This document shows, piece after piece, positions 1-54,462 of a DNA stretch of 61,010 nt (within the stretch, counting starts at the first letter, position 1; every line of letters begins with the position of its first letter). The notes under the pieces were generated by a model, which did not search any database, was not told the DNA's origin, and saw nothing but the letters and a program-made list of their open reading frames with translations. This stretch comes from a virus (Duplodnaviria > Caudoviricetes). The translations under genes and the position numbers were made by a program. The stretch is from positions 1 through 61,010 of IMG/VR virus record IMGVR_UViG_3300008255_000145. One strand, written 5' to 3'.

Positions 1-3000
1 ACTTGCACTTGGTCTTGTAAATGTCATTATTGCTCCCTGACTATCTATACCCCAATTCCCAAGTGTTCCACCAACTTCTAGTTTGTTAGTCGGACTCGTC
101 GTCCCGATGCCGACGTTGCCGCCATTTTGAATTACCAATTTAGCTGCACTTAAAGAATGAGTTGGACTAATTATAAATTGATTTGATGCTACACCTGCAT
201 CGTAAGGAGAACCAATAACCCAATCATCAGTTCCAGCAGTAGAAAATCTCATTGTTGCTGAACGCACATTTGAGTTTCTATCTATCTGAATAGCTGGAAA
301 ACCAGTAGAACCAGTCGTTTCAGCTTTAATTAAAATTTCCTCTGACCCAGTTCCAGTAGAAGAAACAGTCAATTTCTTCCCCGGTGCCGTCGTCCCGATG
401 CCGACTTTGCCAGTACTTGTAATTCTCATATTTTCATCAAATGAAGCACCTGCAGAATCCCTAGAACTAAATATAGTATCGGCCACACCTCCACTACCTG
501 TTCTTAGAAACTTTATTTGAGCAGATGGCAATGATGAATTATAAGAAGCTGTACTACCCCAGAAATTTATAGCAGAAGCAGTTGTACCATCAACAGCAGT
601 ATTATCGTGAAGTAAAATATCAACCCGACCATCTTTTTGTATTTCAAGTTCTTCTTCGGGCCCCGTCGTCCCGATGCCGACGTTTGTTCCATCAGTGTAT
701 ATAGGACTATTAACTAATGTAGTTGCGGATTTATAAGGCAAATAACCTGTAGTAAGGTTAGTCGGAGTTATACCAGCAAATGTAGGACTACTTGTAGTTG
801 CAATGTTTTGTATTGTATTTAAAAGATTGCTAGTTATCTTTAAGTTTGTTGTATTATAACCTAAACTTAATGTTCTGTTTGAAGTTAAATCTCCGCCCCC
901 AGTCAATGGGTAGGTCGTTGAGATACTTCTGTCAGCTCTTACGGCGTGAGTAGTTCCGCTTGCTTGTACACCTAGTATTAAATTAAGTCCATTAAATGTT
1001 AGTCCAGGGTTAGTATCAAATGTATAGTTAGTTCCATTCCATATTGCAATACCAGTATCATTAAGAGTATTATCTCTTAATGCTAATGCTTTAGTATTAT
1101 CCGTTGTTATAATTTCATATGTAGATGTATTGTCTGGAACAGTTGTCCATGCAATAGATACAGTTGCAACTTTAGTACTTCCAACGTAGTCAGTAATAGT
1201 TCTTTTCTGTCCGTAACCAGTTCCACTTGTTATTTTTATTATTTTATTATTATATATATCATTTACAGAACTTGCAGTAGCCCCAAGAGTAATAGTAGAT
1301 GCCGCGCCCGCCCCTGCCGTGCCTTCTTCAGTAACCAGTTCTCCATATCTACCTGTATCGTCGGATTCTCTATGAATCAATGCATAGTTAGAAAGAGTTC
1401 CTCTATCGAATACCATACCTGCGTAACCGGCTGTAATACCATCTCCAGTTTCACCTTGATTCAATAGTATAATATTATCTGTAACTTCAACTGTTTCAGC
1501 ATTAGTAATATAGTGACTACCACTTTGTGTTATATTGCCACCTATTGTAAGATTACCTCCAATAGATATTGATTCTGGAAGTTGATGAAAATGGTCAGCT
1601 CTAGAATATTCAAGAGCACTACCACTTCCTCCTGGAAGATTACTTACTCTTTCTGAAACTATATTAGATGGAGGTATTGAACTTGCTACAAAATCTCCGA
1701 AGAGAGCTGTGGTTCCATATACTTCTAAATTTTCTTGTACTGTTAAATTCTTAGTGCTTAGTGTGACGGTATTTACTATAATGCCATCTTTAGTTGCTTT
1801 TATATATTCATCAGGATTAGAATATATTAATATACCATCATCATTAATTTGTGTAGTTTTATATGTTCTTGTAAAATTAAAGTCGTCGAAATAAATACCA
1901 AGTCTAAAGTTAGTAGTTCCAGTCTCTCCATCCCATGTGCCACTGTATCCACAATTGCCAGTTACAACAAATTTTATATGTGTAATATTATTAACACCAT
2001 CTGGTATTCCAGATATTATACTATATCTTGTAAATGCCGTATCTCTGCCTATTACTATGCCAGATATTTTCTTTATTTCTATATAATTTATTCCATTAAC
2101 AGAATATAATATTTGCATATCAATTGTAGTAGAACCATTGGGAACTTTCCCAGTTGCACCACTTAATTCTCTTGCAGCTGCGTAGAATCCTAAGTTAATA
2201 GTTGATTTATCATCTAATGTAGTTATTGGAATAATCTTGGTTAAAGAACCACTAAAACTGTTATTGCCATTATATTCACCAACCGCTTCTATTAATACTG
2301 ATTTAGTTCCACTGTTAAATAGGGTAGTAGATATATAGGTAATACTATTGGCACCTTCTATAAATACCCAGTCAACATCATCTGATTCAAACCCAGCATT
2401 AGTTAAAGGAACATCTGTTCCAACTAATGATGTAAATGCTATATTTCCTATTTCAACTGACTTGTTATTATTGGCAGTTTTAAAATATAGTGACTCAGCA
2501 CCATCTGTTGATTCTAGGAAAAGATTATTCTTATATATATTTGATGCATTTACAGACCACCCACCTAAATTAGCATTAGAGCTAGATAGAATCATATCAT
2601 AAAATTCGGCGTTATCTCCTTCTATTTTCCATCTTGGTCCAGTACCACTAGCCCATGTTGCGCTTTGAAGTAATCCGGCGCCAGACCCATCACCAACGGT
2701 TAATGAATGTGCTATTGTAGCATCTCTAACAAATAGTACATCTGTTATTTGCGTCCATTCATAATCTGCTTGATTAGTAGTCCACGATGTAGTTTCTTTA
2801 TTATAGGCAACACCCATATACTCCGTGTCTGTTGTAGGAGCATCGGTAATATCAGTGATAGTTACACCGCCATCTATAGAAACGCCATATACTATCCAAG
2901 TATATTGTATCGGACCATCTTCGACTAGCGTTAACCAAGAAGCTCCATCATATACATATGACATCCTATCTACTGTATTATAATAGTACCAGTTTTCTAC

Positions 3001-4122
3001 AGGACCAATAGGAGGATTAGCAAGCTTGCCTTTAAAAATAAGAGGTCTTCCCTTAACTACTTTCTCTATATTAAATGTAGTTTCATTAAGAAAGTCTCCA
3101 TTATCACCTGTTATATGCATAGTAAAATGCATACTATCAGAAGTAAAAGCATTACCAGTAAGAACTACAGAATTATATGATCCATTGAAAGGAACAAATG
3201 TAGGGTTGCATTCAGATATGCCATCTATCGTCATAGTAATAGGTAGTATAGTAGTTCCTTTAATAAAGTCTATTTGTATTATTCTATCAGTATCATCTAT
3301 AGGGTATCCGTCGGCATCACATACTATTGATAAAGTGGCTGGTTTTATGAATAAAGAATATGCACTATTACCAGATTTATTTTTAGAAACAGAAAATACC
3401 TTACTTATTGCAATTCCATTATATGTAGCAGTAAATGTAATAGATGAAGTATCTGCAGTTAAAATATCTACCGTAGCAGTTCTCCCAGTATAGGTAAATT
3501 CGCCAGCCCCTGCTGTATTATCCTCTACAACTCCAATTTCATCTCTATTATAAGTAATAGCCCAAGAAGTTAATATATCATCAGATATATCTAAAATGCC
3601 CCTATACAAACTTCCATTACTTATTGCTCCAGAATAAGATGTTGGATTACCATCTTCGTCACACGGTATCGCGTGAAGTTGATTATCTAAATTAATATTT
3701 AGAGCATCAGAACCTTCTACTAGCTTAGGTGCACTAATAGTTTCTGTCATATGATTATAGGCACTTTCCCAATCACCTTTTTGGTGATATGTAACAGTAA
3801 CAATAATATCAGTAAAAGTATTATCAGTTAATTCTGTAATTGGTACATATATAACATCTGTTTGAATAGCTTCACTATCTTTAGTTATTGGTATAGTGCA
3901 TGCAAGGTCGCTAAAAAAATCTAAATCATTTGCATTACTATCTATAACACTCCATGACGTATTACCATATAAATGTATTTTATCTAGCTTATATTTTAAA
4001 ATTTCAGGAGTTTGTGGCACCCCATCTGGAGTCGCATATATTAAATTGTCACCTGTAAGCTGAAATATTTTAGCAGAAGTAGAATCTACAGTCTTTATAA
4101 GACCAACATAACCATTACTCAT
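1..4122 (-). CDS. Long tail fibre / receptor-binding protein, 3'-truncated by the window edge (>=1374 aa)
   Basis: Not in the ORF track, consistent with having no stop in the window. ATG at 4122 overlaps the upstream TGA (ATGA). Manual translation starts MSNGYVGLIKTVDS and stays in frame at base 1 (..GNVGIGTTSPTNKLEVGG..). Three VGIGTTxP fibre repeats; downstream of the baseplate genes. Confidence 0.85.
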   Translation of the reverse strand, partial: MSNGYVGLIKTVDSTSAKIFQLTGDNLIYATPDGVPQTPEILKYKLDKIHLYGNTSWSVIDSNANDLDFFSDLACTIPITKDSEAIQTDVIYVPITELTDNTFTDIIVTVTYHQKGDWESAYNHMTETISAPKLVEGSDALNINLDNQLHAIPCDEDGNPTSYSGAISNGSLYRGILDISDDILTSWAITYNRDEIGVVEDNTAGAGEFTYTGRTATVDILTADTSSITFTATYNGIAISKVFSVSKNKSGNSAYSLFIKPATLSIVCDADGYPIDDTDRIIQIDFIKGTTILPITMTIDGISECNPTFVPFNGSYNSVVLTGNAFTSDSMHFTMHITGDNGDFLNETTFNIEKVVKGRPLIFKGKLANPPIGPVENWYYYNTVDRMSYVYDGASWLTLVEDGPIQYTWIVYGVSIDGGVTITDITDAPTTDTEYMGVAYNKETTSWTTNQADYEWTQITDVLFVRDATIAHSLTVGDGSGAGLLQSATWASGTGPRWKIEGDNAEFYDMILSSSNANLGGWSVNASNIYKNNLFLESTDGAESLYFKTANNNKSVEIGNIAFTSLVGTDVPLTNAGFESDDVDWVFIEGANSITYISTTLFNSGTKSVLIEAVGEYNGNNSFSGSLTKIIPITTLDDKSTINLGFYAAARELSGATGKVPNGSTTIDMQILYSVNGINYIEIKKISGIVIGRDTAFTRYSIISGIPDGVNNITHIKFVVTGNCGYSGTWDGETGTTNFRLGIYFDDFNFTRTYKTTQINDDGILIYSNPDEYIKATKDGIIVNTVTLSTKNLTVQENLEVYGTTALFGDFVASSIPPSNIVSERVSNLPGGSGSALEYSRADHFHQLPESISIGGNLTIGGNITQSGSHYITNAETVEVTDNIILLNQGETGDGITAGYAGMVFDRGTLSNYALIHRESDDTGRYGELVTEEGTAGAGAASTITLGATASSVNDIYNNKIIKITSGTGYGQKRTITDYVGSTKVATVSIAWTTVPDNTSTYEIITTDNTKALALRDNTLNDTGIAIWNGTNYTFDTNPGLTFNGLNLILGVQASGTTHAVRADRSISTTYPLTGGGDLTSNRTLSLGYNTTNLKITSNLLNTIQNIATTSSPTFAGITPTNLTTGYLPYKSATTLVNSPIYTDGTNVGIGTTGPEEELEIQKDGRVDILLHDNTAVDGTTASAINFWGSTASYNSSLPSAQIKFLRTGSGGVADTIFSSRDSAGASFDENMRITSTGKVGIGTTAPGKKLTVSSTGTGSEEILIKAETTGSTGFPAIQIDRNSNVRSATMRFSTAGTDDWVIGSPYDAGVASNQFIISPTHSLSAAKLVIQNGGNVGIGTTSPTNKLEVGGTLGNWGIDSQGAIMTFTRPSAS
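97..681 (-). repeat. Three identical 18-nt GC-rich repeats GTCGGCATCGGGACGACG (encoding VGIGTT) at 97-114, 388-405 and 664-681
   Basis: Exact cgtcgtcccgatgccgac matches on the + strand, spaced 291 and 276 nt. The intervening sequence is unrelated and AT-rich. Confidence 0.95.
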
Positions 4123-5330
4123 ACTATATCCTTAAATTTAATTTCGCCTCTAACAGTTTTAATATCCTTTGTAGAAGATGTTTTTGGCATTGTTGCAGTA
4201 CTACATCCTACCCAAAAACCAATTTGTTTATTGACAGGTATGGCGCCGATCCTAACTCTATACTTTGGCTTAGATGATGATTCTGCATGTATATCAGGCA
4301 CAACATCAACTATAAACCATTCAGTTGAATTATCTGGATATGTAGATTGGGTTCCACTATATGTAAAATCTTTAATTTGCATAAATATTATGTAGCTTTT
4401 ATTTTTGAGAAATTGTTTCTTTGTAACATTTTTAATTGTACCATCTGCATGCATATGGTCATTAATATCATTATGATTCCACATATTATCAAATTCTAAG
4501 TCTATATAACCCATATCATTCCAATCGCCAGCATTGTCTAGATCTGAATATTCATCTAGGTTAATACTATAATATTTTAGATTGGTGACAGATGGTATTT
4601 CTTCATATTCATCACTAATACCATTAAATTCATAACCATAACCATCTGAGTTAAATAGATATAGTTGATTTGATGGATAGAATAGTATCTCGCATTCATC
4701 TCCAAAAATAGTTGTCCCGGCATCATCAGTAAGAGATAATTGAATAGTTTGACTAGTATTGGATACTATCCTCATTGGATTAACTGTAGTATAAACTCCA
4801 TTTTGTATAATAAGGCACTCCATACCAGACAATTCATTGGGATTCCATGCTTGTTCATCTGTTGCAGTAAATATCATACCACTGTCCAGAGAACCAATAT
4901 ATGCATCATTATCATAATAAACTGATGCTAATTCTTTATTGCTATCTATAAATTCTAATTTAAACTTATGAAAATATCCCACAGGATGTGCAGGTATATT
5001 ATTCACAACAAAATTTTTTGTATTATATGGACCATTTAATCCTTGAAAAGAAAATGATTGCAATAATGAATATCTACTTGGTATGGAAATAGATTTTTTG
5101 CTAAGATCAGTTTCCTTTGAATATGAAGATATATATACATTAATAATACTTAATTCATTACTTGTATTTAAGTTTATTATATTAAATATTGCAGAAGAAT
5201 TAGTTCTCTCTCTCCCATAGTCATCTACACTCTCACTAACATTTACACTAATAGAATTAATTATTGTATTATTTGAGTTAAATTTTGAATCATATCTAAC
5301 TAATCCAATATATGCATCTTTATTAATCAA
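4119..5330 (-). CDS. Putative baseplate/fibre-attachment virion protein (403 aa)
   Basis: Lies between baseplate and fibre genes. C-terminus resembles that of 5323..6264 (YIIF..EWFIVD..IPVNKQIGFWVG). Confidence 0.55.
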   Translation of the reverse strand: MINKDAYIGLVRYDSKFNSNNTIINSISVNVSESVDDYGRERTNSSAIFNIINLNTSNELSIINVYISSYSKETDLSKKSISIPSRYSLLQSFSFQGLNGPYNTKNFVVNNIPAHPVGYFHKFKLEFIDSNKELASVYYDNDAYIGSLDSGMIFTATDEQAWNPNELSGMECLIIQNGVYTTVNPMRIVSNTSQTIQLSLTDDAGTTIFGDECEILFYPSNQLYLFNSDGYGYEFNGISDEYEEIPSVTNLKYYSINLDEYSDLDNAGDWNDMGYIDLEFDNMWNHNDINDHMHADGTIKNVTKKQFLKNKSYIIFMQIKDFTYSGTQSTYPDNSTEWFIVDVVPDIHAESSSKPKYRVRIGAIPVNKQIGFWVGCSTATMPKTSSTKDIKTVRGEIKFKDIV

Positions 5331-12210: not shown

Positions 12211-15200
12211 TTATACGTCAGCATCCTTCTGTTTGGCTATTCCTAAAATTGAATTTAACGTATTAGATGATATATATTTAATAACATCAACAGCTTCATA
12301 TACCATTTTAAGCTGGTCTGCTTCAAACTCTGCAAGTGTTCCCATTTTATAGGTATCAAGACCATACATATATGGAATGCCGTGCATTAATAATGGTCTT
12401 AAATATATAGAATCTGTGTATTTAGCCATATTAAAAGCAGTAGTTCTAAGACTTATTAGTAATGCGGTCGTTAATATAAATACACCAGCAAATGGTATTA
12501 GTGCACCTGTAGCCATGCTACCAAATATAAGACTAGATGCAATAGATATACCTGCGGCACCAGCCATTGCTTTTCTTGGAGAATTTAGAGCCTTGAGTAC
12601 ATTACTATTGTATTTATTACTCATTGCTTCTATTTGTTCTTTTGTAAGAGTACTATTTTCAATAACTTGATTTATTTCATATGACGAAGTAGCGATATCT
12701 TCAAAATCACTCATTGTCATACTCGCAGCGGTTGATACGTGCGACGACATAGATGGAACTATACTACTAATCATTCCAGAATACTGTGATATATTAATAA
12801 TATGATCTTTAACTTCTATATTACCACCCATACCTATTGAAGAATCTACTAGAAAGATTGAATCATAAGGTTTTATATCGGAATTTATTATAATGCCGAA
12901 TGTTCCTTTATATAACTTTTTGCTTTGCTTCCACAATTCTGCAGTACCATAATCATATGCACCACCAAACGAAATTTTCGTTAACTTACCATTAACAGTA
13001 ATTTCTGCCTCATGTCCAGTAACTTCAAGTGGGGCATTTGGCGCCAATAACACCTTAGTTCTGACTTCTTCAGCTTTAAGAAATTGATTTAATTTAAGGG
13101 ATACACTATCGCCACTATCTCCATAATTAACAACAACTCTAGTATAAACATCTTTATAGTCAGCTCTTATTCTATTATAGCATAGATTCTTATGCGATGA
13201 AACAAACCACTTTTTCTGAAACTTTCTAACAGTTCTATTCCTTAGATTGGTTAAAAGATCTAATCTATCATTACCTTCAAAATATGTAGCACCAGCAATT
13301 AATCTTTCTCTAAATGTAAATGCTCTATTATAATATAGCCCAGTTGGAGGTCCAAAATATAATGTTACCCTATCTTCATATGGCAATACTTTTGCAACAT
13401 AGCCAGGATATCTATATGTCATTTCATCTATGATTTCCCATGGAGTCTTCGCATTAACATCAAAGTCAGAAAATATTTGGTCAAACCAATCGTTAAATTT
13501 AAGAGGATGTTCTGCTAATTGGGAGGAAAGACGATCAAACTCTTCTGTAATTGGAGTAAATAGATTTTGATCTGCATTACTTCTAGTGTATACCCACAGT
13601 CTATCTGTTATTCTTCCATCTGCTCTAATTCTCTTAAAATCAGGAGCTAGACCATATTCACCAAAAACAAGACCACCAAGACCAAATCCAAATTTACTAT
13701 CTGTCATTTGTAAGTTGGAAGATGACATTAATTTCCATTTGCCAAAATGAACCATTTCAGGTTGTGCTAAGGCCCAGTTTAATATCTCCCAAGTACCTGG
13801 ATTAAAATCTGTAATATCACTATTTTTATTTGGATTTTTTACGTCATATATAGCTTCTACTCCAAATGACTGACATTGCATTTCATATTGCATTCCATCG
13901 CCTTCAACTGAAGCTATAAGTCCATTAAACTTAGTAGGTAGTTCTTGTACATCATTACCGTACCCAGCCTTAAACTGTACACGGGTTCCTGGTTTTAATA
14001 CGATTCCAGTAAGTCTATTTTCTGCAATTGTATTAAGTGTTTCAGTAGGCTTTTTTTCAGTTTTTGGTTTATCTCTATACTTAGCAGAAGTAAATTTCTT
14101 AGATACATCTATAAATTTTACCATCAACAAATCGGCAGGCTGATCGGCATGTTCTATAAAATCTATTTCTGCAACAGCGTTCAATCCAAACATTTCATTT
14201 AAATCATGTCGCATCCATGCAAACATTTCTTCATCATCGTCTTCAAGAATATAGACCTTAAATGCTGGAAATGCATTTAGTAGAGTAAGTCTGTCTCTCA
14301 CACCGTTATCTATTGCTATGTTGTACTGTCCGACAACTTCCGAATCCTTTCTCTTTGATTCTATTTCTAATTGCTCCGCTTCAGATAATTCTTGCTTTTC
14401 TCCAAATATAATTGCAGTGGTTATTGCCTTGTGATCCGAACTCGTAGTTTCAGTATATGTCTCGGTTGAATATGCACCTTTTGATATTAGTATATTATCA
14501 AAACTTGCCGTGTCTGCATTTTTACTGCTATAATAAGTATTTTCTACAACTGCTTGACTAAAGCCAGAATATTCACTAGCAACTACATTATTGAAGTCTC
14601 CAAGAACTATTATTAAGTCTGAATTAAAATTTAGTTGTATTTGATTTCTAATATCGGCCAACATAAAATTAGCATTACTAACATCTTGACCACTTGGAAA
14701 ATGCACCCCAACAATAGATATTTTTTTATTACTCTTTGTAGTTACTATTGCGTGTATTGCATCTCTATTACCATGATATTTAATTGGGTCTTCTATCTCT
14801 ATAGACTCAAATGAATCATTTTTGATAAACATAGATGTTCCCCATTTCTTAAACTCATTGGTAACATATTCTCCATATGATCCTTCTATTTTTATAATTT
14901 CAAATTTTCCATTATCAAGTTCGTCAATATTCATATTATATATTTCATTGAATACAACTATAGAGTTGTGTAATAACAATTCCTCAGCATATAATAAATC
15001 CTCAGGATTGGTACCAAATTTTACATTCCATGTTGCAATGCGTGCAATCATACTGTCTGAATCTGCCAACTGATCTATCTCTAGTTTGGTTGATGTATTA
15101 GTGTTATTGCCAGGAGTAGCAGAATTAATTGCGTCATCATCTTTTGCGGCCTTATTATCATCTAGGGCTATATTATATGCACTCTTACTATGTCTTAATA

Positions 15201-18200
15201 TTCCTTTCGTATTCTCTAGAATTTTTTTATTTCGTTTTTTTTGTATATCACGATATGCTGATGCATTTCCTATTCCCATATAGTTAGCGCCAGTTATCAG
15301 TGATTTAGATGTAGTTTGTTTTACTATATCTTGTTCTTTATTGGAATCTAGTGTTACTTCTTTATATTTATTTGCCTTATCGTTATTTTTACTATTCTTT
15401 ACCTTTTTAGTGGCTTCAATCTCTTTTTCATTTTGTTCTTTTTCTTTTGCACTAAACTCTGTTTGAATTACAACACTAGATAATATGTCGCTTAATCTTG
15501 TATCATCAAATTGTTCTTCGTATTTCTTTAATGCCTTATTATATTGCTCATTATTAAGAACCATATCATTATTGGTATTTTGTGTTTTAAAGTCATAATC
15601 ATGATATTTGCTTTCTTGATAAAAATAAAAATCAGGATTTAATGTTGGAGGCAAATAAAAGTCACTATATGCACTCTCGGTTATCTGATCTACAAAATCT
15701 AATGTAGTCAATCCTAGCTCATTGGGCTTTAACATAGCACCAAGGGACGGCCATGCTTTATATATCTTACCTAAATTAGCTTGGACACCCGACCATAATG
15801 CATCTCTGACATCAACTTTGATAACATCCTTACTTCTAAATACAGAAGATAAATCAATATCAACCTTTTTAACAGTACCAGTAAATTTACTTGTAACTAT
15901 TTTTGTTACACCATATTTATCAAAAAAACTATCCTTATCAGTTATATTTCCAACAGCACTTTCTAATCTTTTTAGCATATCGTCTATAACTGCTTTTCTT
16001 GTATTAGTTATATTTTGTGGGTAATTTATTACTGATATTTTATATTTAGCATTACCCTTGATCCCTTTAGTATATATTCCCGTTCCTACATTATTATATG
16101 ACACAAATCCTTCTATTTCATATGAAGCACTAAGTATTTCTAATTCTAGAGTAGTTCCAGTAAATATCTCATCTATGAATTTGTGAATAATATCACTATC
16201 GGTATATCTTTCTGTCATACTAAACATGTTACTAGTATAAAAATGAGTACGCATCTTAGTAATATTAGTTGCTTGTAATAACATAGCCTCACCGCCAGGA
16301 ATTTCAGGTATAGTTTCTATTCTACTTGAATCAACAGAGAAAAATACACCAGGAGCTATAGTATTAAGAAATGGGTCTTTAATAATAATACCATCCATTA
16401 ATGATAGATCTTTGTATTTAGAAAGATTATTATGTATTTTGTCTAATATTTGATTGAATTCTAAAATTGAAGATTTAGCTGATTCTAATTGTTCGTCAGC
16501 AGACACTATTTTAAGGGCAATAGTATCCTCGCGACCCCCTAGATACTGATGTGTAGCTAGTCTATGTCCCGCTAGTGGTACTCTAGGAATTGTAACATTT
16601 CCATTAACTTCATATGAATCTATAATAATATTTTTAACTACATGCTCATTATATGTTCGTAGATAGTATATTGCAGTGAATGCTATATCTGGAAATTCAA
16701 TATCATAACCCTTATTGGTTTCATCGCCATTGATTGGCGCATAGTCTACTTCTACAATTTCTTTTGATGACTTATTTAATAGTTCTTTTGGTATATCTAA
16801 TAAGAACAACTTTGCTTCATCAACTCTTCTTATTTTTAGTGCAGGAACAATATTGTGGTTAACATCTTTAAAATAGGATAGCATCTTATTAGCCGCACCT
16901 TGATAGTCGCCATCATTAATAAATGAAACAATACCATTAACATTAGATTCGCCCGCACCTCTATTATAGAAATGTGATATTAACGCATTAAACATATTCA
17001 TTGTTATTGGAGCTGATATACTGTTTTTAACTTGGTAGAATACCTCTTTCTGTATGTGAGTTAATACTTGAATTTCTGCTTCACCTCTTGTCATTGATAA
17101 TGTAGCTAATTGATATGCCTTATCAATATCTTCAGTTCTAAAAACTATTCCAGCAGCATTATTTTTGTCAGCTCTAATAGATGCCAATTCTTTAATGCTT
17201 AATAACTGTTTCCCTTTATTTAATACCTTTTGTACAGATGCCCGAGTTCCATGTCCAATAGAATAATGATCTACGTCTGGATAAGCAAATTCACTATATC
17301 CTTCCTTGTCGATAATAAATTTTAATATACTACCACTAAGTACAAACGGATTGGATGTACTTGGATTGCTTATATACCTTTTTACTGCTTCACTAATCTT
17401 TTCCGTTTGAAGATCTGTAGCTCTTTCTTTGAATTTATCAATCTTTTCATTTTCTGCTTTATAATATGTTTCATCATAAAATGCAACTTTTTGTACATCA
17501 CCTGCTTTTGGGTATCCTTTATTGGCTTCAATGGCCATAGCTTTTGCTGGGGACATTATGCCTTTTTTTTCAAACAAACCACTTAATCCATCTCTTTCTA
17601 TATCGTCATATGTAAATGATATTTCTTTAGGCTCATAAGTATAATATCCAAGAACAATACTATTGCTTGGTTTATTGTATATCTTATACCATTGAGATAT
17701 CGCATCATAAAGTTTATAATTTAATGCATGAAACTGATTGAATGCTTCAGACTTTTTAATGTCATATGTTAATCCTGGAGTTTTAAAATATCCACTATTG
17801 CCACGCTTAAATATAGTATTGTTACTAGATACATTCTCTTCACTTTTATAGTTAAATGTTTCATAGTTCTTAACATACTTTATTGAATCTGCATATGGTA
17901 GATAATTAAATAGTAATAGATTTAATGTAAGCCTAGTTGCTCTAGGGGTATTTTGATCCGGCATTATTGCATGACCATTATAGGTAAACATTAATTTATC
18001 CTTACTAAGAGATAGTGTATCATAGTTAATCTCTTTAAGTTTGGTTATTAAATGTTTTCTTAGGAATTCGTTCTCCATTTCAAAGAACGGCATATATGTT
18101 ATTTGAGTAAGAAGTGGCATCATTTTATTAATAATTTCATCTTCCATACTAGTTTGGAAATATGGATTGTCCGTAAATACCAAAGATAATTGTATTGCAA

Positions 18201-18522
18201 CTTCTGTATGGTTAGTATCTATTGATACAGTGTGTTGAGTTCTTAGATTGGGCATATTGATTTTACGTTCTGATATATTAATAGCTATGTTCTCAGGTGG
18301 TATTGTTAATAATATATCATTTATTCTAAGAAGGGAGTTGTCGCCCGATTCTCCATGCTTACGCATGATTTTATTGTCTGTTAATTCACTGTATGTTTTA
18401 TAGCTTTTATAGATGGTATTTGGAGTTTCATTTGGATCTAAATATCTATTTACACTATTTATCCAATAAGCCTCTAAGTCATACTTGTTAGTTAAACTTC
18501 CACCGTTTTGTACTTTATCCAT
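12211..18522 (-). CDS. Large baseplate hub / tail-associated lysin with GH24 lysozyme and EEP domains (~2100 aa)
   Basis: Likely start is the ATG at 18522 (TAATAATG coupling; the ORF track extends to 18543). Lysozyme motifs KEGYSEFAYPD..SIGHGT, FNALISHFYNRG, LKIRRVDEAKLF (~16800-17330). EEP motifs ATWNV, FNE, VHF, LGDFN, FDNI, SDH (~14400-15050). C-terminal hub-like region RVQFKAGYG..KFNGLI..CQSFG. Confidence 0.8.
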   Translation of the reverse strand: MDKVQNGGSLTNKYDLEAYWINSVNRYLDPNETPNTIYKSYKTYSELTDNKIMRKHGESGDNSLLRINDILLTIPPENIAINISERKINMPNLRTQHTVSIDTNHTEVAIQLSLVFTDNPYFQTSMEDEIINKMMPLLTQITYMPFFEMENEFLRKHLITKLKEINYDTLSLSKDKLMFTYNGHAIMPDQNTPRATRLTLNLLLFNYLPYADSIKYVKNYETFNYKSEENVSSNNTIFKRGNSGYFKTPGLTYDIKKSEAFNQFHALNYKLYDAISQWYKIYNKPSNSIVLGYYTYEPKEISFTYDDIERDGLSGLFEKKGIMSPAKAMAIEANKGYPKAGDVQKVAFYDETYYKAENEKIDKFKERATDLQTEKISEAVKRYISNPSTSNPFVLSGSILKFIIDKEGYSEFAYPDVDHYSIGHGTRASVQKVLNKGKQLLSIKELASIRADKNNAAGIVFRTEDIDKAYQLATLSMTRGEAEIQVLTHIQKEVFYQVKNSISAPITMNMFNALISHFYNRGAGESNVNGIVSFINDGDYQGAANKMLSYFKDVNHNIVPALKIRRVDEAKLFLLDIPKELLNKSSKEIVEVDYAPINGDETNKGYDIEFPDIAFTAIYYLRTYNEHVVKNIIIDSYEVNGNVTIPRVPLAGHRLATHQYLGGREDTIALKIVSADEQLESAKSSILEFNQILDKIHNNLSKYKDLSLMDGIIIKDPFLNTIAPGVFFSVDSSRIETIPEIPGGEAMLLQATNITKMRTHFYTSNMFSMTERYTDSDIIHKFIDEIFTGTTLELEILSASYEIEGFVSYNNVGTGIYTKGIKGNAKYKISVINYPQNITNTRKAVIDDMLKRLESAVGNITDKDSFFDKYGVTKIVTSKFTGTVKKVDIDLSSVFRSKDVIKVDVRDALWSGVQANLGKIYKAWPSLGAMLKPNELGLTTLDFVDQITESAYSDFYLPPTLNPDFYFYQESKYHDYDFKTQNTNNDMVLNNEQYNKALKKYEEQFDDTRLSDILSSVVIQTEFSAKEKEQNEKEIEATKKVKNSKNNDKANKYKEVTLDSNKEQDIVKQTTSKSLITGANYMGIGNASAYRDIQKKRNKKILENTKGILRHSKSAYNIALDDNKAAKDDDAINSATPGNNTNTSTKLEIDQLADSDSMIARIATWNVKFGTNPEDLLYAEELLLHNSIVVFNEIYNMNIDELDNGKFEIIKIEGSYGEYVTNEFKKWGTSMFIKNDSFESIEIEDPIKYHGNRDAIHAIVTTKSNKKISIVGVHFPSGQDVSNANFMLADIRNQIQLNFNSDLIIVLGDFNNVVASEYSGFSQAVVENTYYSSKNADTASFDNILISKGAYSTETYTETTSSDHKAITTAIIFGEKQELSEAEQLEIESKRKDSEVVGQYNIAIDNGVRDRLTLLNAFPAFKVYILEDDDEEMFAWMRHDLNEMFGLNAVAEIDFIEHADQPADLLMVKFIDVSKKFTSAKYRDKPKTEKKPTETLNTIAENRLTGIVLKPGTRVQFKAGYGNDVQELPTKFNGLIASVEGDGMQYEMQCQSFGVEAIYDVKNPNKNSDITDFNPGTWEILNWALAQPEMVHFGKWKLMSSSNLQMTDSKFGFGLGGLVFGEYGLAPDFKRIRADGRITDRLWVYTRSNADQNLFTPITEEFDRLSSQLAEHPLKFNDWFDQIFSDFDVNAKTPWEIIDEMTYRYPGYVAKVLPYEDRVTLYFGPPTGLYYNRAFTFRERLIAGATYFEGNDRLDLLTNLRNRTVRKFQKKWFVSSHKNLCYNRIRADYKDVYTRVVVNYGDSGDSVSLKLNQFLKAEEVRTKVLLAPNAPLEVTGHEAEITVNGKLTKISFGGAYDYGTAELWKQSKKLYKGTFGIIINSDIKPYDSIFLVDSSIGMGGNIEVKDHIINISQYSGMISSIVPSMSSHVSTAASMTMSDFEDIATSSYEINQVIENSTLTKEQIEAMSNKYNSNVLKALNSPRKAMAGAAGISIASSLIFGSMATGALIPFAGVFILTTALLISLRTTAFNMAKYTDSIYLRPLLMHGIPYMYGLDTYKMGTLAEFEADQLKMVYEAVDVIKYISSNTLNSILGIAKQKDADV

Positions 18523-18524
18523 TA

Positions 18525-21500
18525 TTAACCACCATAGTTCCAATTATTTTGTTTGTTATCGTCTTGCAATTCAGCTAAATACCTTGAATTGATTGAATTC
18601 GATTGATTGATTACATATTGAGATCCGCCACCTCCGACTGCACCTTGTACATCCCCTGCAGACATACCTGGACCTAATTCTCCAGTAAGGGCATATCTTG
18701 CACCACCAACTGCCTTACTAACTATTCCTGTTGGAGGATTAATACCATTCTCATATGTTCTTTTATTTTTTATTCTAGATTCTTCTCTAGCTTCTTGATT
18801 CTTTATATTATTGTCTGGACTTTGTAATAAAAATGCACCGGCTAATAATGCACTACCTGCAATAAGTAGTCCTTTGTTATCTTTTATCTTCTTAGTGATA
18901 TTCATTAAAGAATCACCTGAAGATATTGCAATCTCTCTCATTGCTCCTGTACTAGCTCTATTTCTTAATAATTGTTCGGCACCAGGTTCCATAATATTAT
19001 AGTCTTTTGGTAGGTTGCCAAGAAAGTTATGCAGCGTTGCCGCGCTATCTCTAGTAGTGGCTTTCTTTGTCATTAAATCTACAAGTATAGGATTCTCGGC
19101 ATAATACTTTCTACCGCCTTTAAGATAATTCTCTATTTCCATATCACTCATTTCTGCCATAATATCGTGACCCTCAAGATTTTTCATGGTAAGATGTTTC
19201 TTAAATAGATCTCTAGCTTCTTCTATATTATTTTTCTTAACATCAAATATATTATAAATTTCCTCTAACTGATCTTGTGCAATAGGACTCTTAGAACCAA
19301 TGGCTCTTTCAGGTAAAGTACTAACATAATGTTCCATAATAGCACTTTTAGTCGAAGCTTTAAAATGTTCTGAGTCTTGAAATACATCTCCTACATAAGG
19401 ATTAATAGATCTACTATATGGCATTGTCACATTATAAAATTCAGAAATACCCTGTTGAGACACGTTGGCTATTTGATTGGGCACAAGCCCTTTTGTCATA
19501 TTCTTAAATACATCACCACCTTTAAGACCCCCCTTATTTGATTCAGAAAAGAACTCTAATAATGGAGACTTATAATCTTTCCATTGCCTTGATGTAGCAA
19601 GTCTAGCCTCTTCTCTAGATATTGTAATAGCAGACCATGGATCTTTATCTTGATCTAGTAAACCTAAGAATTCCGTAATTTGATTAGCGGCCATCTTATC
19701 ATTCATTCCTGCTATCCATGTTCTATCATATTTATTAACGCCTGCTATTTTGTTTAGTTGGTCAGCCATATCTTCCATGTCTAACACTTTAGATACAGTA
19801 AATGATTCTGCGCCATAATAAGGAGCACGACCGCCTGCTTCAAATAGTCCCTTTTTAATTAACTTTTGTCTAGTTTGATTATTAAATTCAGACAATTGTT
19901 CTGAGGACAAATTGCTTATTCCAGTACTTTCTTTATAACTAGCAAGTTCTGTTTTATACATATCTGTATATGCTAATTTTTCATCTATAACAGCACTATT
20001 ATATCCAGTAAAGGATTTAGTTTTTAATTCCTCAATACTAACACCATATCTTTCTGCTAGCATACTTTGTACTTTGCCACCGTGTTTTTTATCAAGAGAT
20101 TCTAACATCTGTATATCAAATCCCTGAGGACCAACATATACTCTAGAAGAACTATTTGGATGTAAGTGATCTATTTTAAAGGCTGCTTGTTCTATAAGTC
20201 CAACAGCAAGATTTGCCCTCAATGCTTTATTGGCTAATATAGCTTCATGTTTTCCAGCTCTAAGGTTTTGTATAAAATCTTTATTAGCAGCATTATATTC
20301 GCCAAGAATATCTATAGAACCTTCAAGATCATATTGATTAGTTGCACTAGTATATTTACTATCAAATAAAGCTAATGGTATATTGCGATAATTATTACTT
20401 TGTCCACTACCAAGATCTATGTAAAATACAGTATCTTTTGCAACACTCTTATTTAATAATTTATTATCAAGACCTTGATTAGCCATATCAGTAGCACGTT
20501 TTCTGGCAGCGTCTACATCTCCACCAAAGAATATATTAATATCCTCGTCTACTAAGTTTTCTAATTTAAATCCATAAGATGGACCAGATATATTGTTTGC
20601 TATAACTGGTAATATCTGCTGAGTAACATTCTTAATAAAAGCAGTATTTGCTTCAGAGCCTATATTAAGTTCTTTAGCTGCGTCAATAAATCCAGCACTC
20701 ATTAATCTTCTTTTCTGTATATTATTAATAGATACTTGACCAATTCCTATGCCGTGATTTGCTTGAGTAGTATCTGCCGATATATATGATTCATATAAAT
20801 TTGCACCACCAAATATACTATCATTAATTGGCTTATTCATTCTTGCAAGAGGTTCATTTTTACGATGTGGCGGAGCCCCAGTAATAAGCAGTTCTAAATC
20901 CTTATCAAAACTATTATGGATTTTCATAATCTCTCTATACTGTCTATTATTTTGAGGGCCAGTAAGAATTTTAAACATTTGTTGTTCATTAATATTGTTG
21001 TTCATTCCATATATAGTTGCCGCAGCTGACATTTTAGTATTAACTATTCCAGCACCTTCAAGTTTGCCGAATGAACCCCAGAATTTGTTACTCTCAGCAA
21101 ATTTAAATATAGACTCTCCATGTATCCTAATGCCATCTTCTGTAGCTGTAATTCTTTTTATTATAGTATTAGAATTGATTTCACCTTTACTCATAGGATT
21201 GTAAGTTAAGGCTATCTTACCCTTTTTCCTTGTTAATCCAGACATTTGTATGCCTTTTAATGTCATGCCACCTGGTTTAGATACTCTGGCTGCAAAGTCT
21301 TTATATACTTGATCTCTGATACCTTCATTGCCTGCCTCACTCATCATGAGAGCTAATTTCCTAGCTGTTTTTCTTTTGCCTTTAACAGACATATATTTTC
21401 CACCACTAGATTGTAGCATGGCATCTGCTATCATTAGGTTGGCTTCATGAGTTAATGCAACTCCCTTACCTTTAAAGGATAGTTGTATATTTTTACTAGC

Positions 21501-27374: not shown

Positions 27375-27986
27375 TTATATTACTGTTTTTGCCATAAAGG
27401 CGTATGAGTCTTTTATTACTCCTTGTTCTACTGAACGTACCCTAGATAATGCATCTACAAATACGTCTTTAATTATTATTAATTGTTTATCTTCATTATT
27501 TAAAATAGATGGTATCCTATCATTAACAGAGAATCTACTATTGTCAACTATTTTTATATCAAATGGTAAAGCAACCATTTCTGGTCTAACTCCATCAAGT
27601 ATTGAATTATTTGATACATTGGCATCTTGATTATTATAATTTCTATATATATTAAGTTCTTCATTTGTCATAGTTACGAAATTACGTAAAACCCTATCTT
27701 GTGAATATGCATTCTTAGATTCTTCACTCGACTTTTCTATTTCTATTGCATTTGGATATATTAATGACGTAAAATAACTATTAGCTAGATAGTTGACTAT
27801 AAGACGACCGGATACTTGAACTCTACTATTTGATACTGTATCAAAATGCATAGATCTGTATCCAAAGAATGGTATGTGCTGTGAGCTGTATTGAAAATCT
27901 ATAGATGCTATTTCATTGCTAATATGATCATTGAAATATATTTGTGTTTGTGCACTAGAGTAATATGTTTTATGTTCATAAATCAT
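27375..27986 (-). CDS. Tail-tube-like protein (tube initiator/baseplate paralogue)
   Basis: YYSSAQTQIYF..IPFFGYRS..VSGRLIVN..LPFDIKI parallels the tube protein. Confidence 0.65.
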   Translation of the reverse strand: MIYEHKTYYSSAQTQIYFNDHISNEIASIDFQYSSQHIPFFGYRSMHFDTVSNSRVQVSGRLIVNYLANSYFTSLIYPNAIEIEKSSEESKNAYSQDRVLRNFVTMTNEELNIYRNYNNQDANVSNNSILDGVRPEMVALPFDIKIVDNSRFSVNDRIPSILNNEDKQLIIIKDVFVDALSRVRSVEQGVIKDSYAFMAKTVI

Positions 27987-28612
27987 AAGAAATAATCCTT
28001 CATTTTTTTGAATGCAGCATCTGCTATTGTATATTCTGTTTCTAGGAATGATTTAACTAATATGCTTTCATTAATACTTCCTTGTCTCATTGGTAATATA
28101 GCAGTGGCAAAATAGTTTACTGAATTTTCTGTTATTAAATCATGTATAGACATTACCTGTCCTTCGTTTACAAATTCTACTCCAAATATTCCAATTCTTG
28201 CAGCATCTCCCGCTTCATTTGTAAAGTCTAAAAATATATCTAATGGAGGCAGTTGATCTATTCTTATAGGATTAATACCATTTTCTTTTGAGCGAATTGC
28301 CTTAAATACATTGTCTAATATATGAGTTTTAACTACAGTAAATATAGCAGTGCCGGCAACTACTGCCTGTCCCTTCACCATTCCACTTGCCGTATCTCTA
28401 CCAATAGCCCTAGCATGATCTGTATCCCTATGAATAGAGTAACTAAATGTCTGTATATTATTTATCTCTATTATTTTATTGGCACCATCTGCAAGCCATT
28501 TAGTTGGTATAACTGCAGTAATATTAATATCTGCACCAGAAAATGACATTCCTGAAGGCAGAGGTGTAAGTGAATTTTGAATAAAATCATATTTTTCTGT
28601 ATCATATAACAT
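27983..28612 (-). CDS. Tail-tube-like protein (tube paralogue)
   Basis: FSGADI..IQTFSYS..VAGTAIFT..DQLPPLDI..NEAG..IFGVEFVNEGQVMSI is clearly similar to 28780..29412. Confidence 0.75.
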   Translation of the reverse strand: MLYDTEKYDFIQNSLTPLPSGMSFSGADINITAVIPTKWLADGANKIIEINNIQTFSYSIHRDTDHARAIGRDTASGMVKGQAVVAGTAIFTVVKTHILDNVFKAIRSKENGINPIRIDQLPPLDIFLDFTNEAGDAARIGIFGVEFVNEGQVMSIHDLITENSVNYFATAILPMRQGSINESILVKSFLETEYTIADAAFKKMKDYFL

Positions 28613-28779: not shown

Positions 28780-29412
28780 TTATCTTTCTTCTGATGTAAC
28801 ACCACCAATAGTTACCATTCTTGATAACTCTCTAGCAACAAATGAATATTGTGTATCAAGGCTAATATCTTCTATAGATATTCCACTTCCTTCGTTAAGT
28901 ATCTCTACTCCGAATAAGCTTTTTCTAGCTTGTTTACCATATTCGTTGTTGTATGCTATGTGAATGTCAAATGGCAATACTTGATCTGCATATTGTGCAC
29001 TTTTTTTATCTCTAAACTGAGAACTAGTTGAAGTTCCACCAGTTGTATCTTGTCCAGAAATTGCAGCATTAAATGCCGCAAAGGCATCAGTAGTAGTAAG
29101 TCCTGTAGAATTAGCATTTAATATACTATCATCAGTAGCGCGAATATCATGTTTACTAATCCACATTTGATCTTTATTAGCTTTATTGGCATATGTCATA
29201 AATGCTTCTTTATCAAGGTTAGTAAATGCAAGTTGTCCTGCAATTGCTCGAATGCCTCTTCCGTATGCTATAGGATCTGCAGAACCATTCATCACATGAA
29301 TTGGTCCCTTAGCCCTACTTGTACTCCAAGAGATACTCTGTAATGTTCCCAACTCAGTCGTTCCAATTGACGCTATAATATCAGCGCCAGAGAATGTTGA
29401 ATATTTTTCCAT
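28780..29412 (-). CDS. Major tail tube protein
   Basis: Follows the sheath. FSGADI..LQSISWS..GRGIRAIAGQLAF..DQVLPFDI..NEYG..GVEILNEG; strong RBS and its own terminator. Confidence 0.85.
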   Translation of the reverse strand: MEKYSTFSGADIIASIGTTELGTLQSISWSTSRAKGPIHVMNGSADPIAYGRGIRAIAGQLAFTNLDKEAFMTYANKANKDQMWISKHDIRATDDSILNANSTGLTTTDAFAAFNAAISGQDTTGGTSTSSQFRDKKSAQYADQVLPFDIHIAYNNEYGKQARKSLFGVEILNEGSGISIEDISLDTQYSFVARELSRMVTIGGVTSEER

Positions 29413-34787: not shown

Positions 34788-36005
34788 TTATAGAGTGATT
34801 ACTGCTGTACCAGCTTGGTCAGTGATAGGTGTAAAGGTACCACCGCTCATTGTAGGCTGAATACTTGGAGTCATTCTATTAGGCTCAACTTTGATGTATC
34901 TCATAACTGCAATAGCATTACCATCATTATAAGGTTGAATCGCATAACGTTCTCTCATTTTGATTTTAGTAATTTCATGCAATCTATCAGGTATCTCTTC
35001 CATTGTAGCTTCTTCTTCAACAATTAAAGCACCAAGACTATTCGAATCAACGAAATAGATATCAGTAAGTTTAGTTGTTTTATTATAAGGAACAAATGGA
35101 GAAGCAATGATTCTTATAGGTAGACCTAGGTATCCAGGTATTTTTGGAGAACCATTAGGAATATTTTCAAGATTACTCATTGCAGATGCAGGACCTGCAC
35201 CAGGACCGGCTTGTCCCATAGAACCTTGATTGAAAGGAAATTTGTTTTGTCCAGAACCATTCCAACCATTAAACCATGCACCACCACCGTGCTCTAATGC
35301 CATTGTTCGAAGAACAGGGTCACTTAAGAACATAGTATATGTCAATGGGTTAACAATTAATGTGTCTGCAATAAATCCATTTTCTAAAATTGCTGAGTAG
35401 GCTGCATAGATATCTTCTAATGTTAAAGAACCATTAGCTGTACCTGTATAGTCATATCCAGTTGTTGTACCAAAAATAGAATCACTAGGACTAACGTTGT
35501 TGTGAGTTGTGATACCAACGCTAGAGAGCATTGACCATATTTTTGATTCTTTCAATCTTGCTAACGCTCGTCCCATACCTCTAAGATATACATTAAGCAT
35601 ATCAAAGTTGCTATGTTTGAATAAATCATCAGAAAACTTGATCGCAAGACCAGATTTTCCCATGCTAACAATTTGAGCACCAGGTCCGAAGTTTAGACCA
35701 GTTTCTGGATATTCACCAGTTTGACCGATATCTTCAGCAACCATTGCGCCAATGTTAGTAGCGAATGAAATTTGCATACCATTTTGGTAGTTTACTCTCT
35801 CTAAAAGATTAGTACCTACAAGCATTGGTTCAATTGCTTCTCTTACAATAGTTTCTACTACTGTAGGGAAGAAGTGTGTTGCATTTTCGTGAGAAAGCGC
35901 ATCTTTAAGCTCTACTCTATCTACTTCACCTTCTTTGTGGAAAACTCCACTTGATTTAAAGACACTTAAATAATCTTTAAAATCTTTACTATCTTTGAAT
36001 TTCAT
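34788..36005 (-). CDS. Major capsid protein (HK97 fold, 405 aa)
   Basis: FPTVVETIVREAIEP, EDIGQTGEYPE, KSGLAIKFSDD, GRALARLKE, DTLIVNPL, IKMRERY; lies after the protease and decoration genes. Confidence 0.9.
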   Translation of the reverse strand: MKFKDSKDFKDYLSVFKSSGVFHKEGEVDRVELKDALSHENATHFFPTVVETIVREAIEPMLVGTNLLERVNYQNGMQISFATNIGAMVAEDIGQTGEYPETGLNFGPGAQIVSMGKSGLAIKFSDDLFKHSNFDMLNVYLRGMGRALARLKESKIWSMLSSVGITTHNNVSPSDSIFGTTTGYDYTGTANGSLTLEDIYAAYSAILENGFIADTLIVNPLTYTMFLSDPVLRTMALEHGGGAWFNGWNGSGQNKFPFNQGSMGQAGPGAGPASAMSNLENIPNGSPKIPGYLGLPIRIIASPFVPYNKTTKLTDIYFVDSNSLGALIVEEEATMEEIPDRLHEITKIKMRERYAIQPYNDGNAIAVMRYIKVEPNRMTPSIQPTMSGGTFTPITDQAGTAVITL

Positions 36006-52191: not shown

Positions 52192-53035
52192 TGTTTTTCC
52201 CTTTACTCATATCTTCTTTAATTTGGTCCATGATAGCTATCATTTTATTTACTCTTGCTGTTTTAGTATTATCTTCTTCAGAAGCACTTCCATAGTCTTT
52301 AATCGCACTTTTTGATTTTCGGGTTGCATTAAGCGATTCTAAAATTTTCATCCTTCTAGTCTTCATTTTTTCTTTTAATCCCCAAGCCCAATGTTCTACT
52401 TCTTCTTGTATAATAGTGCCATCGGCGGCAACACTCTCCTTAATTCCATATAATGATGCATTCTTAGGTTCTGCTAATACATTAGTAACTCTAGTTTCCA
52501 TAATAATAAGTTCACTTAACTCTTGTATTAACATAATCTCACTATGTTCATTAACATCTACATCAAACTCATTGATAAATCTAGTAGTATGATAATTTAA
52601 TAAATCAGCTTCAACAAGACATGGTTTCCCCAATGGTTCTTTTCCTAGTTCTACATAAGGACAATTTTTAGCGAATGGACATTCAGTACCTTGGCATGTC
52701 AAGGGAACCGCGGCATTTACTCCTGTACTCATTTTCTTATAAGACATCATTAACTTTCTAGCTTCTTCTTCTGTTAATACAATATCTCCATATTGTTCTA
52801 ACTTAGTAGATTCCATATTACTAAAGAATTCATTTCTAGTTAATATTCCTTCACTTGTTAATGATATACCTGTTATATCTGTTAATATAATAGTACCTGT
52901 TTCTGTACTTTTTTGTGGCGGGAGCTTTTCTCTTAATTCTTTATTTGTTTCTACTCCTTGCCTCTTTCTTTCTTGCTCTAGTAATTCTATAAAGTCATCT
53001 TTTTTAGAGTTTATATCTATTTCTGTATAGTCCAT
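52184..53035 (-). CDS. Cys-rich protein, possible terminase small subunit (283 aa)
   Basis: First gene of the late arm. CQGTECPFAKNCP..PCLVE followed by helices and ILESLNATRKSK, a TerS-like oligomerisation pattern. Confidence 0.4.
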   Translation of the reverse strand: MDYTEIDINSKKDDFIELLEQERKRQGVETNKELREKLPPQKSTETGTIILTDITGISLTSEGILTRNEFFSNMESTKLEQYGDIVLTEEEARKLMMSYKKMSTGVNAAVPLTCQGTECPFAKNCPYVELGKEPLGKPCLVEADLLNYHTTRFINEFDVDVNEHSEIMLIQELSELIIMETRVTNVLAEPKNASLYGIKESVAADGTIIQEEVEHWAWGLKEKMKTRRMKILESLNATRKSKSAIKDYGSASEEDNTKTARVNKMIAIMDQIKEDMSKGKNNE

Positions 53036-53881
53036 CTTACTTCATCTTTATTATTAGTATAGTTAATAATACTTATTATATATAACTATATCAATTATTA
53101 TTAAATATGTATGGGATTAAGATGTCTAAGAATGATAATAATAGAGGATAAGATGTGGCGTTTTTGGTTTAAAAATAGATTATGTGATAGGGAAAGAAAG
53201 TCCTTCGCCTTTTGTGTATCAAAATGAGACACTTCTATATGAGAGTAAATATATTTTTTTTTAAAAAAATGAGAATAAACGAGAATTGAGAGGATTTAGA
53301 GGAGATGGTTAGTGCCCCTACCCATCTGACAGTAGCAAATAGGACGCTTCTTCGTGTAACATGGATGTTCTAAATAAAAACACTCTTGCCAGGGATGTGA
53401 GGTAGTGTCACTATAATTGGTAGATACCTTGGATAAAATTCATTGCGAGCCCCTACCGGTTTGCGATTTGGCCAATCTTTAGTATTTATTATTGTATCCA
53501 TTATAATGATAAGGTTATATACTTAATAACATCATCCTTGAGATAGTGTAGTATAACCATTCTATATTATATGTGTGTAGCAAGCACATAGAGTGAAGTA
53601 GCGTATCATTCGTATAGGTGTATTTATACATTGACATAATTAATGTATTGCGTTTGTATATTAACAAGAAAAACATAATATACAGTCACATGTGAGTCTA
53701 TATGTAGACCATGTGGTTACCATTAATATAGAAAACACATAGCACCTGTGTTACAGAAGGTAGCTTGAGGAAGTAATGTCGCCGAGAAGTGCATAAGCAG
53801 GCAGAGAAGGACATAATGATACATATTGTACATAGGGCAGACTAGTGAGATACAGCTAGTATGTTATGTATGATATAGACA

Positions 53882-54344: not shown

Positions 54345-54352
54345 TTTCATCA

Positions 54353-54378: not shown

Positions 54379-54380
54379 CA

Positions 54381-54440: not shown

Positions 54441-54462
54441 TAAAAATTAAAAGGAGAAACTT

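Follow-up and report, generated by a model that had tools for sequence, protein, structure and literature searches.

A nucleotide-frozen block between modules of a phage tail-fibre-like gene, a candidate homology joint also found in other viruses, bacteria and archaea

Shufflons and invertible fibre segments, such as those governed by Rci and sfx in R64, Gin in Mu, Cin in P1 and Pin in e14, need inverted repeats and an adjacent recombinase; in these systems, an adhesin or fibre can acquire alternative C-terminal parts by way of short repeats within its gene. Exchanges at conserved motifs, namely the His boxes of gp37 and the glycine-rich motifs of gp38, are described for the adhesin genes of T-even phages (Tetart et al. 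1996, 1998, as cited in Trojet et al. 2011, PMC3157838). According to the passages of that article devoted to these genes, short conserved motifs part variable receptor-binding segments, chimera junctions lie within or near the motifs and no dedicated recombinase is involved. The modular theory of Botstein (1980), named in the same passages, considers linker homology at module borders as crossover points. Here, we analyse a stretch of 61,010 nucleotides from a tailed virus (hereafter the window, which is the entire IMG/VR record IMGVR_UViG_3300008255_000145) and, in it, a tail-fibre-like gene whose dissimilar modules are separated by a short block that is identical at the nucleotide level and that recurs in many other genomes.

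The block lies in the fibre open reading frame (ORF), which occupies positions 1..4122 of the minus strand (1374 aa, 3' end off the contig) and is the last gene of the structural module. When up to three mismatches are allowed, an 18-mer encoding VGIGTT has exactly three matches in the window, all exact and all on the minus strand (97-114, 388-405 and 664-681). A preliminary description, made from the letters alone, had reported three identical copies separating fibre modules, with G/C at 13 of the 18 bases and at every third codon position; all of this is confirmed. The copies are 291 and 276 nt apart (97 and 92 codons) and are in frame within the ORF. When extended to the 24-nt unit defined below, they match its consensus at 24, 23 and 21 of 24 bases: the last copy (97..120, minus strand) is preceded on the coding strand by GGCAAC (G-N), the middle one (388..411, minus strand) by GGCAAA (G-K) and the copy nearest the N-terminus (664..687, minus strand) by ACAAAC (T-N), which gives TNVGIGTT. 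The preliminary description had also proposed to look left of the window; since the window is the whole record, there is no sequence there.

The frozen codons are rare in this genome. In window ORFs of at least 150 aa, the codon shares are 7.0% for GTC, 16.0% for GGC, 7.8% for ATC, 6.4% for GGG and 5.4% for ACG, so that all six motif codons are minor ones (5-16%) and the probability of the codon string, the peptide being given, is 1.6e-7 per copy. The G/C content at third codon positions (GC3) is 1.0 in the motif versus 0.18-0.20 in its flanks, 0.13-0.17 in the modules without the motif and 0.20 in all window ORFs, in agreement with the A/T-preferring surroundings first noticed. Each copy is followed by a module body on the minus strand: module A (406..663; 92 aa with its motif, GC3 0.13), module B (115..387; 97 aa with its motif, GC3 0.17) and the start of module C (1..96; 38 aa with its motif), which the end of the contig truncates. 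The dissimilarity claimed for the modules largely holds, A and B being about 19% identical (23 identities over 97 aligned positions with the motif, 17 without it). Their alignment score nevertheless lies about 4 standard deviations above shuffles, which makes them distant paralogues of one architecture and not recent duplicates. Coincidence, normal codon usage or the recent tandem duplication of one module has a single point in its favour, i.e. that the copies are direct repeats in one gene; given the absence of any match in 100 dinucleotide shuffles of the window, the value of 1.6e-7 per copy and the low identity of the modules, its probability is practically negligible.

At the protein level, the motif has a structural counterpart. 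Two Bdellovibrio fibres of solved structure, 8OND (Bd2133, E 8e-8) and 8OML (E 0.003), are matched by the C-terminal 400 aa of the fibre. The matched stretches are short (28-117 residues), contain the motif and mostly begin just upstream of it; with 8OND, there are three, centred on the motifs. These fibres are mosaic adhesive trimers (MAT) of intertwined beta-helices with chimeric tips (Caulton et al. 2024, PMC10769870). The parts of that article dealing with the edges of the beta-helices describe capping loops of the form V-G-G/N-pi-X-X-P-X-X-X-L, common to S74-type phage fibres. The three motifs of the window, VGIGTTGPEEEL, VGIGTTAPGKKL and VGIGTTSPTNKL, fit this consensus. Judged by sequence comparison, the VGIGTT peptide is the capping loop of a MAT/S74-type beta-helix fibre and opens each module. 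The fibre ORF as a whole matches no Pfam or PHROG family. At least 1833 relatives of the fibre were found, and many of them end in PF13884 (S74 chaperone/protease domain), a further likeness to MAT/S74 fibres besides the capping-loop consensus and the 8OND alignment. The part of the ORF contained in the window, which runs off the contig end, has no Pfam match. The difference from the published MAT fibres lies in the DNA: nucleotide conservation is absent from the article text of PMC10769870, where "nucleotide" occurs 0 times and "recombination" in the methods only.

The exact 18-mer is widespread in viruses. A search across viral sequences, as the preliminary description had suggested, found it in at least 120 viral contigs, at loci with 29-65% GC (median 45%). 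At these exact viral sites, neighbouring residues are diverse and flank GC3 is below 0.4 in 107 of 173 cases and below 0.3 in 21 of 173. Across all loci, the highest copy number is 22 (consensus-like copies in one locus). Among cultured phages, a 33-nt query is fully covered in none of the 21 matching records; the best match is found in Synechococcus phages S-CRES1/2 (91% cover, 90% identity over 30 nt). Furthermore, 38 metagenome loci were retrieved through other parts of the fibre, i.e. regardless of the motif. They match mainly another conserved fibre segment (32-82% identity) and six of them hold 22 motif sites, four of which are exact, one differs at one base and two at two bases. Flank GC3 of the four exact sites is 0.2-0.4.

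The same 18-mer is also present in at least 120 stretches of prokaryote genomes, where flank GC3 is below 0.4 at 69 of 196 exact sites. According to their labels, the 120 prokaryote stretches listed include about 52 metagenome-assembled genomes (MAGs) of the candidate phyla radiation (CPR)/Patescibacteria and about 13 archaeal ones, mostly DPANN. Other carriers listed are MAGs of Elusimicrobia, Omnitrophica, Planctomycetes, Bdellovibrionales and Gammaproteobacteria, as well as a few high-GC isolates in which the string may be ordinary. To characterize the surroundings, 115 of 154 candidate ORFs lying near the block in 40 multi-copy loci were scanned against Pfam. The contexts include capsid, portal and tube genes of tailed phages as well as CPR housekeeping genes (PheRS beta, GatB, RF-1, LepA and MurJ). 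The rarity of the codon string in this phage and the occurrence of the same 18-mer in such unrelated contexts uphold the earlier claim that identity is held at the level of the DNA and not of the protein only.

Several other neighbours deserve mention. Major capsid genes of giant viruses (nucleocytoplasmic large DNA viruses) at two loci (L044 and L118) or a basic adaptor domain of Paramecium bursaria chlorella virus at a third one (L008) lie within a few kb of an exact 18-mer; the block is therefore also carried by contigs of eukaryotic giant viruses or of their relatives. In cellular contigs, small proteins with a cupredoxin-like domain (five ORFs at four loci, L343, L344, L348 and L359) recur beside arrays of the block, as do proteins with an N-terminal methylation (pilin-like) motif. 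These four loci belong to CPR or unclassified MAGs.

The extent of the frozen unit was examined at 362 exact sites. In the two upstream codons, GGC AAC, the third base is C at 83% and 79% of the sites, and downstream the conserved P, K, L and V codons have no fixed third base (0.04-0.26 bit). The frozen unit is therefore about 24 nt long, GGCAAC plus the 18-mer, and corresponds to the residues that are invariant without a break, G-N-V-G-I-G-T-T. The picture differs when sites are chosen by peptide only (VGIGTTxP): 217 sites from 119 loci display 160 distinct 18-mers, and two sites are exact. The frozen form hence marks a subset of fibres and is not required by the motif. Free synonymous variation of the motif in homologous fibres, which the preliminary description had regarded, together with a lack of module exchange at these points, as an argument against a role of the DNA itself, is thus found in most fibres. 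In fibres whose flank GC3 is below 0.3, motif GC3 tracks that of the flank (0.14 vs 0.15 and 0.24 vs 0.24). At flank GC3 of 0.3-0.4, there is a GC-rich tail, 13 sites having at least five G/C third bases versus 1.1 expected. Likewise, at flank GC3 of 0.3-0.5, the consensus codons exceed the usage of the same ORFs (51% vs 23% for GTC, 42% vs 14% for GGG and 41% vs 19% for ACG).

This peptide-only sample revealed a second over-represented form, a 17-mer beginning GTAGGGATT, found at seven sites in seven loci versus 0.15 expected. At least 120 viral contigs carry this allele 2, in most cases once per locus (L127, L130, L154, L210, L215, L221, L231, and L399 onward). Its flanks are unrelated, their identity having a median of 0.57 and exceeding 0.7 in 0.25% of 400 pairs, and their median GC3 is 0.41. 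It differs from the block described above (allele 1) at five of six synonymous positions. The two alleles never share a locus: allele-2-like copies are found in 0 of 240 allele-1 loci and allele-1-like copies in 0 of 120 allele-2 loci. The existence of two frozen alleles implies that neither the peptide nor its expression demands one particular nucleotide sequence. GC-biased conversion was also considered as a general cause and was rejected: allele 1 has G/C at all eight synonymous sites and allele 2, with GTA, ATT and ACT, has not, so that GC-richness is not general.

A role in expression has to be weighed here. A GC-rich hairpin or the rare codons would slow the ribosome at the start of each module and allow in-register folding of the trimer, and selection on the RNA would keep the letters. 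The codons of the block are indeed rare in this phage, and its core can form a stem of 5 bp with a 9-nt loop (-5.5 kcal/mol) in which the third base of the Val codon pairs with that of the first Thr codon. These two bases match as C-G in allele 1 and as A-T both in allele 2 and in the commonest AT-rich form, and in the unbiased sample they are complementary at 118 of 216 sites versus 89.9 +/- 6.7 (82 of 160 distinct 18-mers, p = 0.004). However, control pairs that are unable to pair in the stem (V3 with G2-3, I3 with T1-3) show the same excess, and the covariation signal is therefore confounded by the consensus haplotype. Moreover, single variants that break the stem (ACA, ACC and GTG) are common in the variant cloud, the freeze extends to the loop and to the GGC codon, which lies outside the stem, the three copies of the window share no structure beyond the small stem and most fibres do without a GC-rich or rare-codon form. 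A search of window positions 1-1200 against Rfam returned no match at E up to 1. We consider such a role distinctly unlikely.

Signs of recombination at the block come from comparisons within and between other loci. Within loci, the test relied on 60 loci with at least three consensus-like copies and on 2000 shuffles. The same non-consensus 18-mer is shared by 46 within-locus copy pairs, versus 7.6 +/- 2.9 in shuffles (maximum 21), and in 42 of these 46 pairs neither 120-nt flank rises above background identity (at most 0.64; baseline mean 0.55). For instance, eight of the nine copies of one locus (L192) have GGT at the second codon, the other C-ending codons being unchanged. The pattern is also found in a finished genome: the 11 copies in gp108 of Synechococcus phage S-CRES1 have a third-base identity of 0.62 versus 0.28 expected, with flanks at 0.56. 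This gene (locus L512, 640-4593) is annotated as "chaperone of endosialidase" and has a private consensus resembling GGCAACGTTGGTATCGGTACGAGT.

Between loci, boundaries of mosaic similarity were surveyed at 59 internal ends of alignments of at least 120 nt with at least 90% identity. The block lies within 25 nt of the end in both sequences in seven cases, versus 0.33 expected under local shifting (maximum 4 in 300); a looser version of the test gives 7 of 54 ends versus 1.35. L096 and L106 have in common a 317-nt cassette (98.4% identity) that extends from 7 nt before one block to 7 nt after the next, with flanks of about 0.2 identity on both sides. In the pairs L087/L102 and L043/L071, identity falls from about 100% to about 0.3 at the block. 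The partners of each of these three pairs come from different metagenome ids. The suggestion that the DNA itself acts as a crossover site thus gains comparative backing at other loci, and no exchange was seen in the phage for which it was made.

These data also bear on passive descent, according to which a fibre lineage has recently expanded by horizontal spread, the block having not yet changed and the module bodies evolving fast under diversifying selection. Variants are distributed star-like around one consensus, mostly by single GC-to-AT steps, decayed copies adjoin intact ones in the same loci and the two alleles behave like two lineages, all of which would fit such a history. However, the module bodies have already reached the composition of the resident genome (GC3 0.13-0.17 vs 0.20 genome-wide) while all six block codons keep G/C, and conserved residues only a few codons off have randomised third bases, which means that there was time enough for synonymous change. 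Private variants common within loci across unrelated flanks, together with identities that fall abruptly at the block, from about 98-100% to background, are likewise at odds with descent alone, which we rate as unlikely.

A dedicated site-specific system, shufflon-, invertase- or integron-like, would invert, insert or excise cassettes at the block by means of a recombinase. The short, exact and repeated sites at cassette borders and the small inverted repeat inside the block, which could be a protein-binding site, are what such a system would display, and the window contains only about 31% of the genome according to the CheckV completeness estimate. However, copies on both strands are found in 0 of 58 multi-copy loci, 128 of 131 spacings are multiples of three and no inverted copy exists in window positions 1-4200. 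No recombinase or invertase was detected among the 44 window ORFs scanned, the only nuclease being an HNH protein beside the terminase, 46 kb away. In the survey of neighbours, one integrase, one IS200-like transposase and two HNH proteins were found, none of which recurs, and the contexts span from tailed phages to CPR chromosomes. Hence, unlike in shufflons, the copies are all direct and in frame, and no recombinase accompanies them among the scanned window ORFs or recurrently in the 40 loci. The shufflon-like option raised in the preliminary description is not borne out by these searches for inverted copies and for a recombinase, and a dedicated system is very improbable. A diversity-generating retroelement was also sought: no reverse transcriptase is present among the 44 scanned ORFs and no long repeat pair in 1-4200 of this incomplete genome.

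From these comparisons, the block is best viewed as a short homology joint at which crossover and gene conversion take place, a reading in which our confidence is evenly balanced. The block is the only uninterrupted homology between otherwise dissimilar modules, and general homologous recombination, with short-tract gene conversion, would operate inside it. Within a gene, conversion would homogenise the copies and modules would be gained or lost in frame; between co-resident genomes, modules would be swapped at the block. Repeated exchange, and not selection on the protein, would then keep the block identical. Mutated copies would leave the exchangeable pool and decay, which would explain why the variant clouds are star-like and why decayed copies adjoin intact ones. 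Two exchange pools, or two lineages, would underlie the two exclusive alleles. The minimal length for efficient RecA-type recombination is given as 23-27 bp, about that of the 24-nt block. We infer, beyond the patterns themselves, that the freeze is caused by recombination, that this phage too undergoes such exchange and that an advantage of exchangeable fibres maintains it.

Several points weigh against the block as a homology joint. The mosaic boundaries come from only about five independent pairs, all of them metagenome assemblies, and short shared repeats can cause the assembly misjoins that would produce such cases. Boundaries located at domain borders could reflect selection for functional chimeras and not a crossover site, and the sharing of variants within loci could partly reflect genome-specific codon pressure. 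Most fibres with the peptide use ordinary codons; the block is therefore dispensable. No close relative of the three terminal modules turned up in IMG/VR (tblastn) or in metagenome contigs. Ongoing homologous exchange across giant-virus-type contigs, CPR and archaeal MAGs is also hard to picture. Finally, no recombinant or rearranged form of the fibre of this phage was found in assembled contigs, where long pieces are collinear across two copies (X3, 98-1225, with 0 differences; X6, 110-1282, with one).

This last result comes from metagenomes in which the phage itself is present. DNA nearly identical to the window is found in runs labelled as aquifer metagenome, four of which were compared; they carry four study codes and may come from one campaign. 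In each of them, the phage was confirmed by long pieces with 0-1 differences. The comparison used Logan contigs, where rare variants cannot show. Rearrangements with breakpoints at the repeat, as the preliminary description had anticipated, did not appear in these assembled contigs. In the same runs, 201-722 contigs per run align to some 25-30 nt at the three copies and cease to match immediately beyond, a pattern that counts in favour of the joint. The summed contig depth is 100-1700 at the copies versus 0-12 elsewhere; these stacked contigs are those of other organisms. Many apparent "joints" in contigs were examined as candidate rearrangements and set aside: their sides are 20-30 nt long and they are contigs of other organisms holding two copies of the block, which say nothing about this phage.

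In a bolder version of the homology joint, the adhesin cassettes of viruses, bacteria and archaea would follow a natural "assembly standard", with the block as its joint. Modules having the same 24-nt standard on either side would make up one exchange pool, and at least two exclusive standards would form separate pools. Selection for exchangeability would preserve the identity of the block, much as in the ends of mobile elements, possibly aided by an enzyme that anneals DNA or recognises the hairpin. We put this forward tentatively and with considerable doubt.

In the rest of the window, PHROG matches identify a structural module of a myovirus, with terminase large subunit, portal, major head protein, tail sheath and baseplate wedge, the fibre ORF being located at its end. 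Within the fibre, a segment of about 80 aa (window 742-981, minus strand; AVRADRSISTTYPLTGGGDLT...NLKITSNLLNTIQNIATTSSPTF) has 69-79% identity with units present twice in otherwise unrelated giant proteins (P0005, P0066 and P0092), and most metagenome "relatives" of the fibre match this segment only. It may be a second exchangeable or repeated unit. The three giant proteins were considered as relatives of the window modules and rejected: high identity is confined to the 742-981 segment and the modules are not shared. Elsewhere, two adjoining minus-strand ORFs of about 210 aa (27983-28612 and 28780-29412) resemble the same PHROG profile, a "major head protein", in each case over its N-terminal third, and a separate ORF of 405 aa (34788-36005) matches other major-head families. 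A minus-strand ORF of 2110 aa (12211-18543) has endolysin-like stretches and lies upstream of two more ORFs of over 1100 aa without family match, an unusually large set of giant structural genes. The coding strand and the sign of the GC skew flip around 53000-54500, genes being on the minus strand from 1 to 53 kb and on the plus strand from 54 to 61 kb.

The adhesins of T-even phages are a close parallel: conserved motifs separate variable segments in the window, and apparent chimeras with junctions at the block are seen at other loci, though not among the modules of the window itself. Nevertheless, several features set the block apart. The freeze concerns a defined unit of 18-24 nt in which every synonymous position is held, and the unit reaches far beyond one phage family: besides tailed phages, its carriers include CPR bacteria, archaeal MAGs and contigs in which giant-virus capsid genes are present. 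Furthermore, at least two mutually exclusive nucleotide alleles exist, and exchange is deduced here from comparison and not from crosses. With the linkers of Botstein, the block shares the presence of short homologous stretches at the borders of otherwise dissimilar DNA. However, those linkers lie between genes whereas the block is inside coding sequence, on a structural loop, in up to 22 copies per locus. A search of the literature on conserved nucleotides, synonymous sites, tail fibres and mosaic adhesive trimers, consisting mostly of titles and the beginnings of abstracts, gave no sign that the block had been described, and none of the mentions of "VGIGT" concerned fibres. Motif recombination in phage adhesins is hence known; what distinguishes the block is the exact nucleotide freeze, its spread over viruses, bacteria and archaea and the two exclusive alleles.

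These observations have practical consequences. A 24-mer shared between genomes inside long repetitive genes invites misjoins and calls for caution in metagenome assembly. The block can also serve as a search handle for fibre and adhesin cassettes in metagenomes, and it would be a natural junction for engineered chimeric fibres in laboratory phages. For experimental work, gp108 of S-CRES1 offers a tractable system. Since synonymous recoding is possible, the role of the DNA can be separated from that of the protein.

Receptor-binding fibres decide the attachment of a phage, a predatory bacterium or an episymbiont to its host, and how their modules are reshuffled is a long-standing question. If the block is indeed a homology joint, a nucleotide-identical element of 18-24 nt present in hundreds of unrelated genomes would make the notion of "linker sequences" testable, and its two alleles would predict which fibres can exchange modules.

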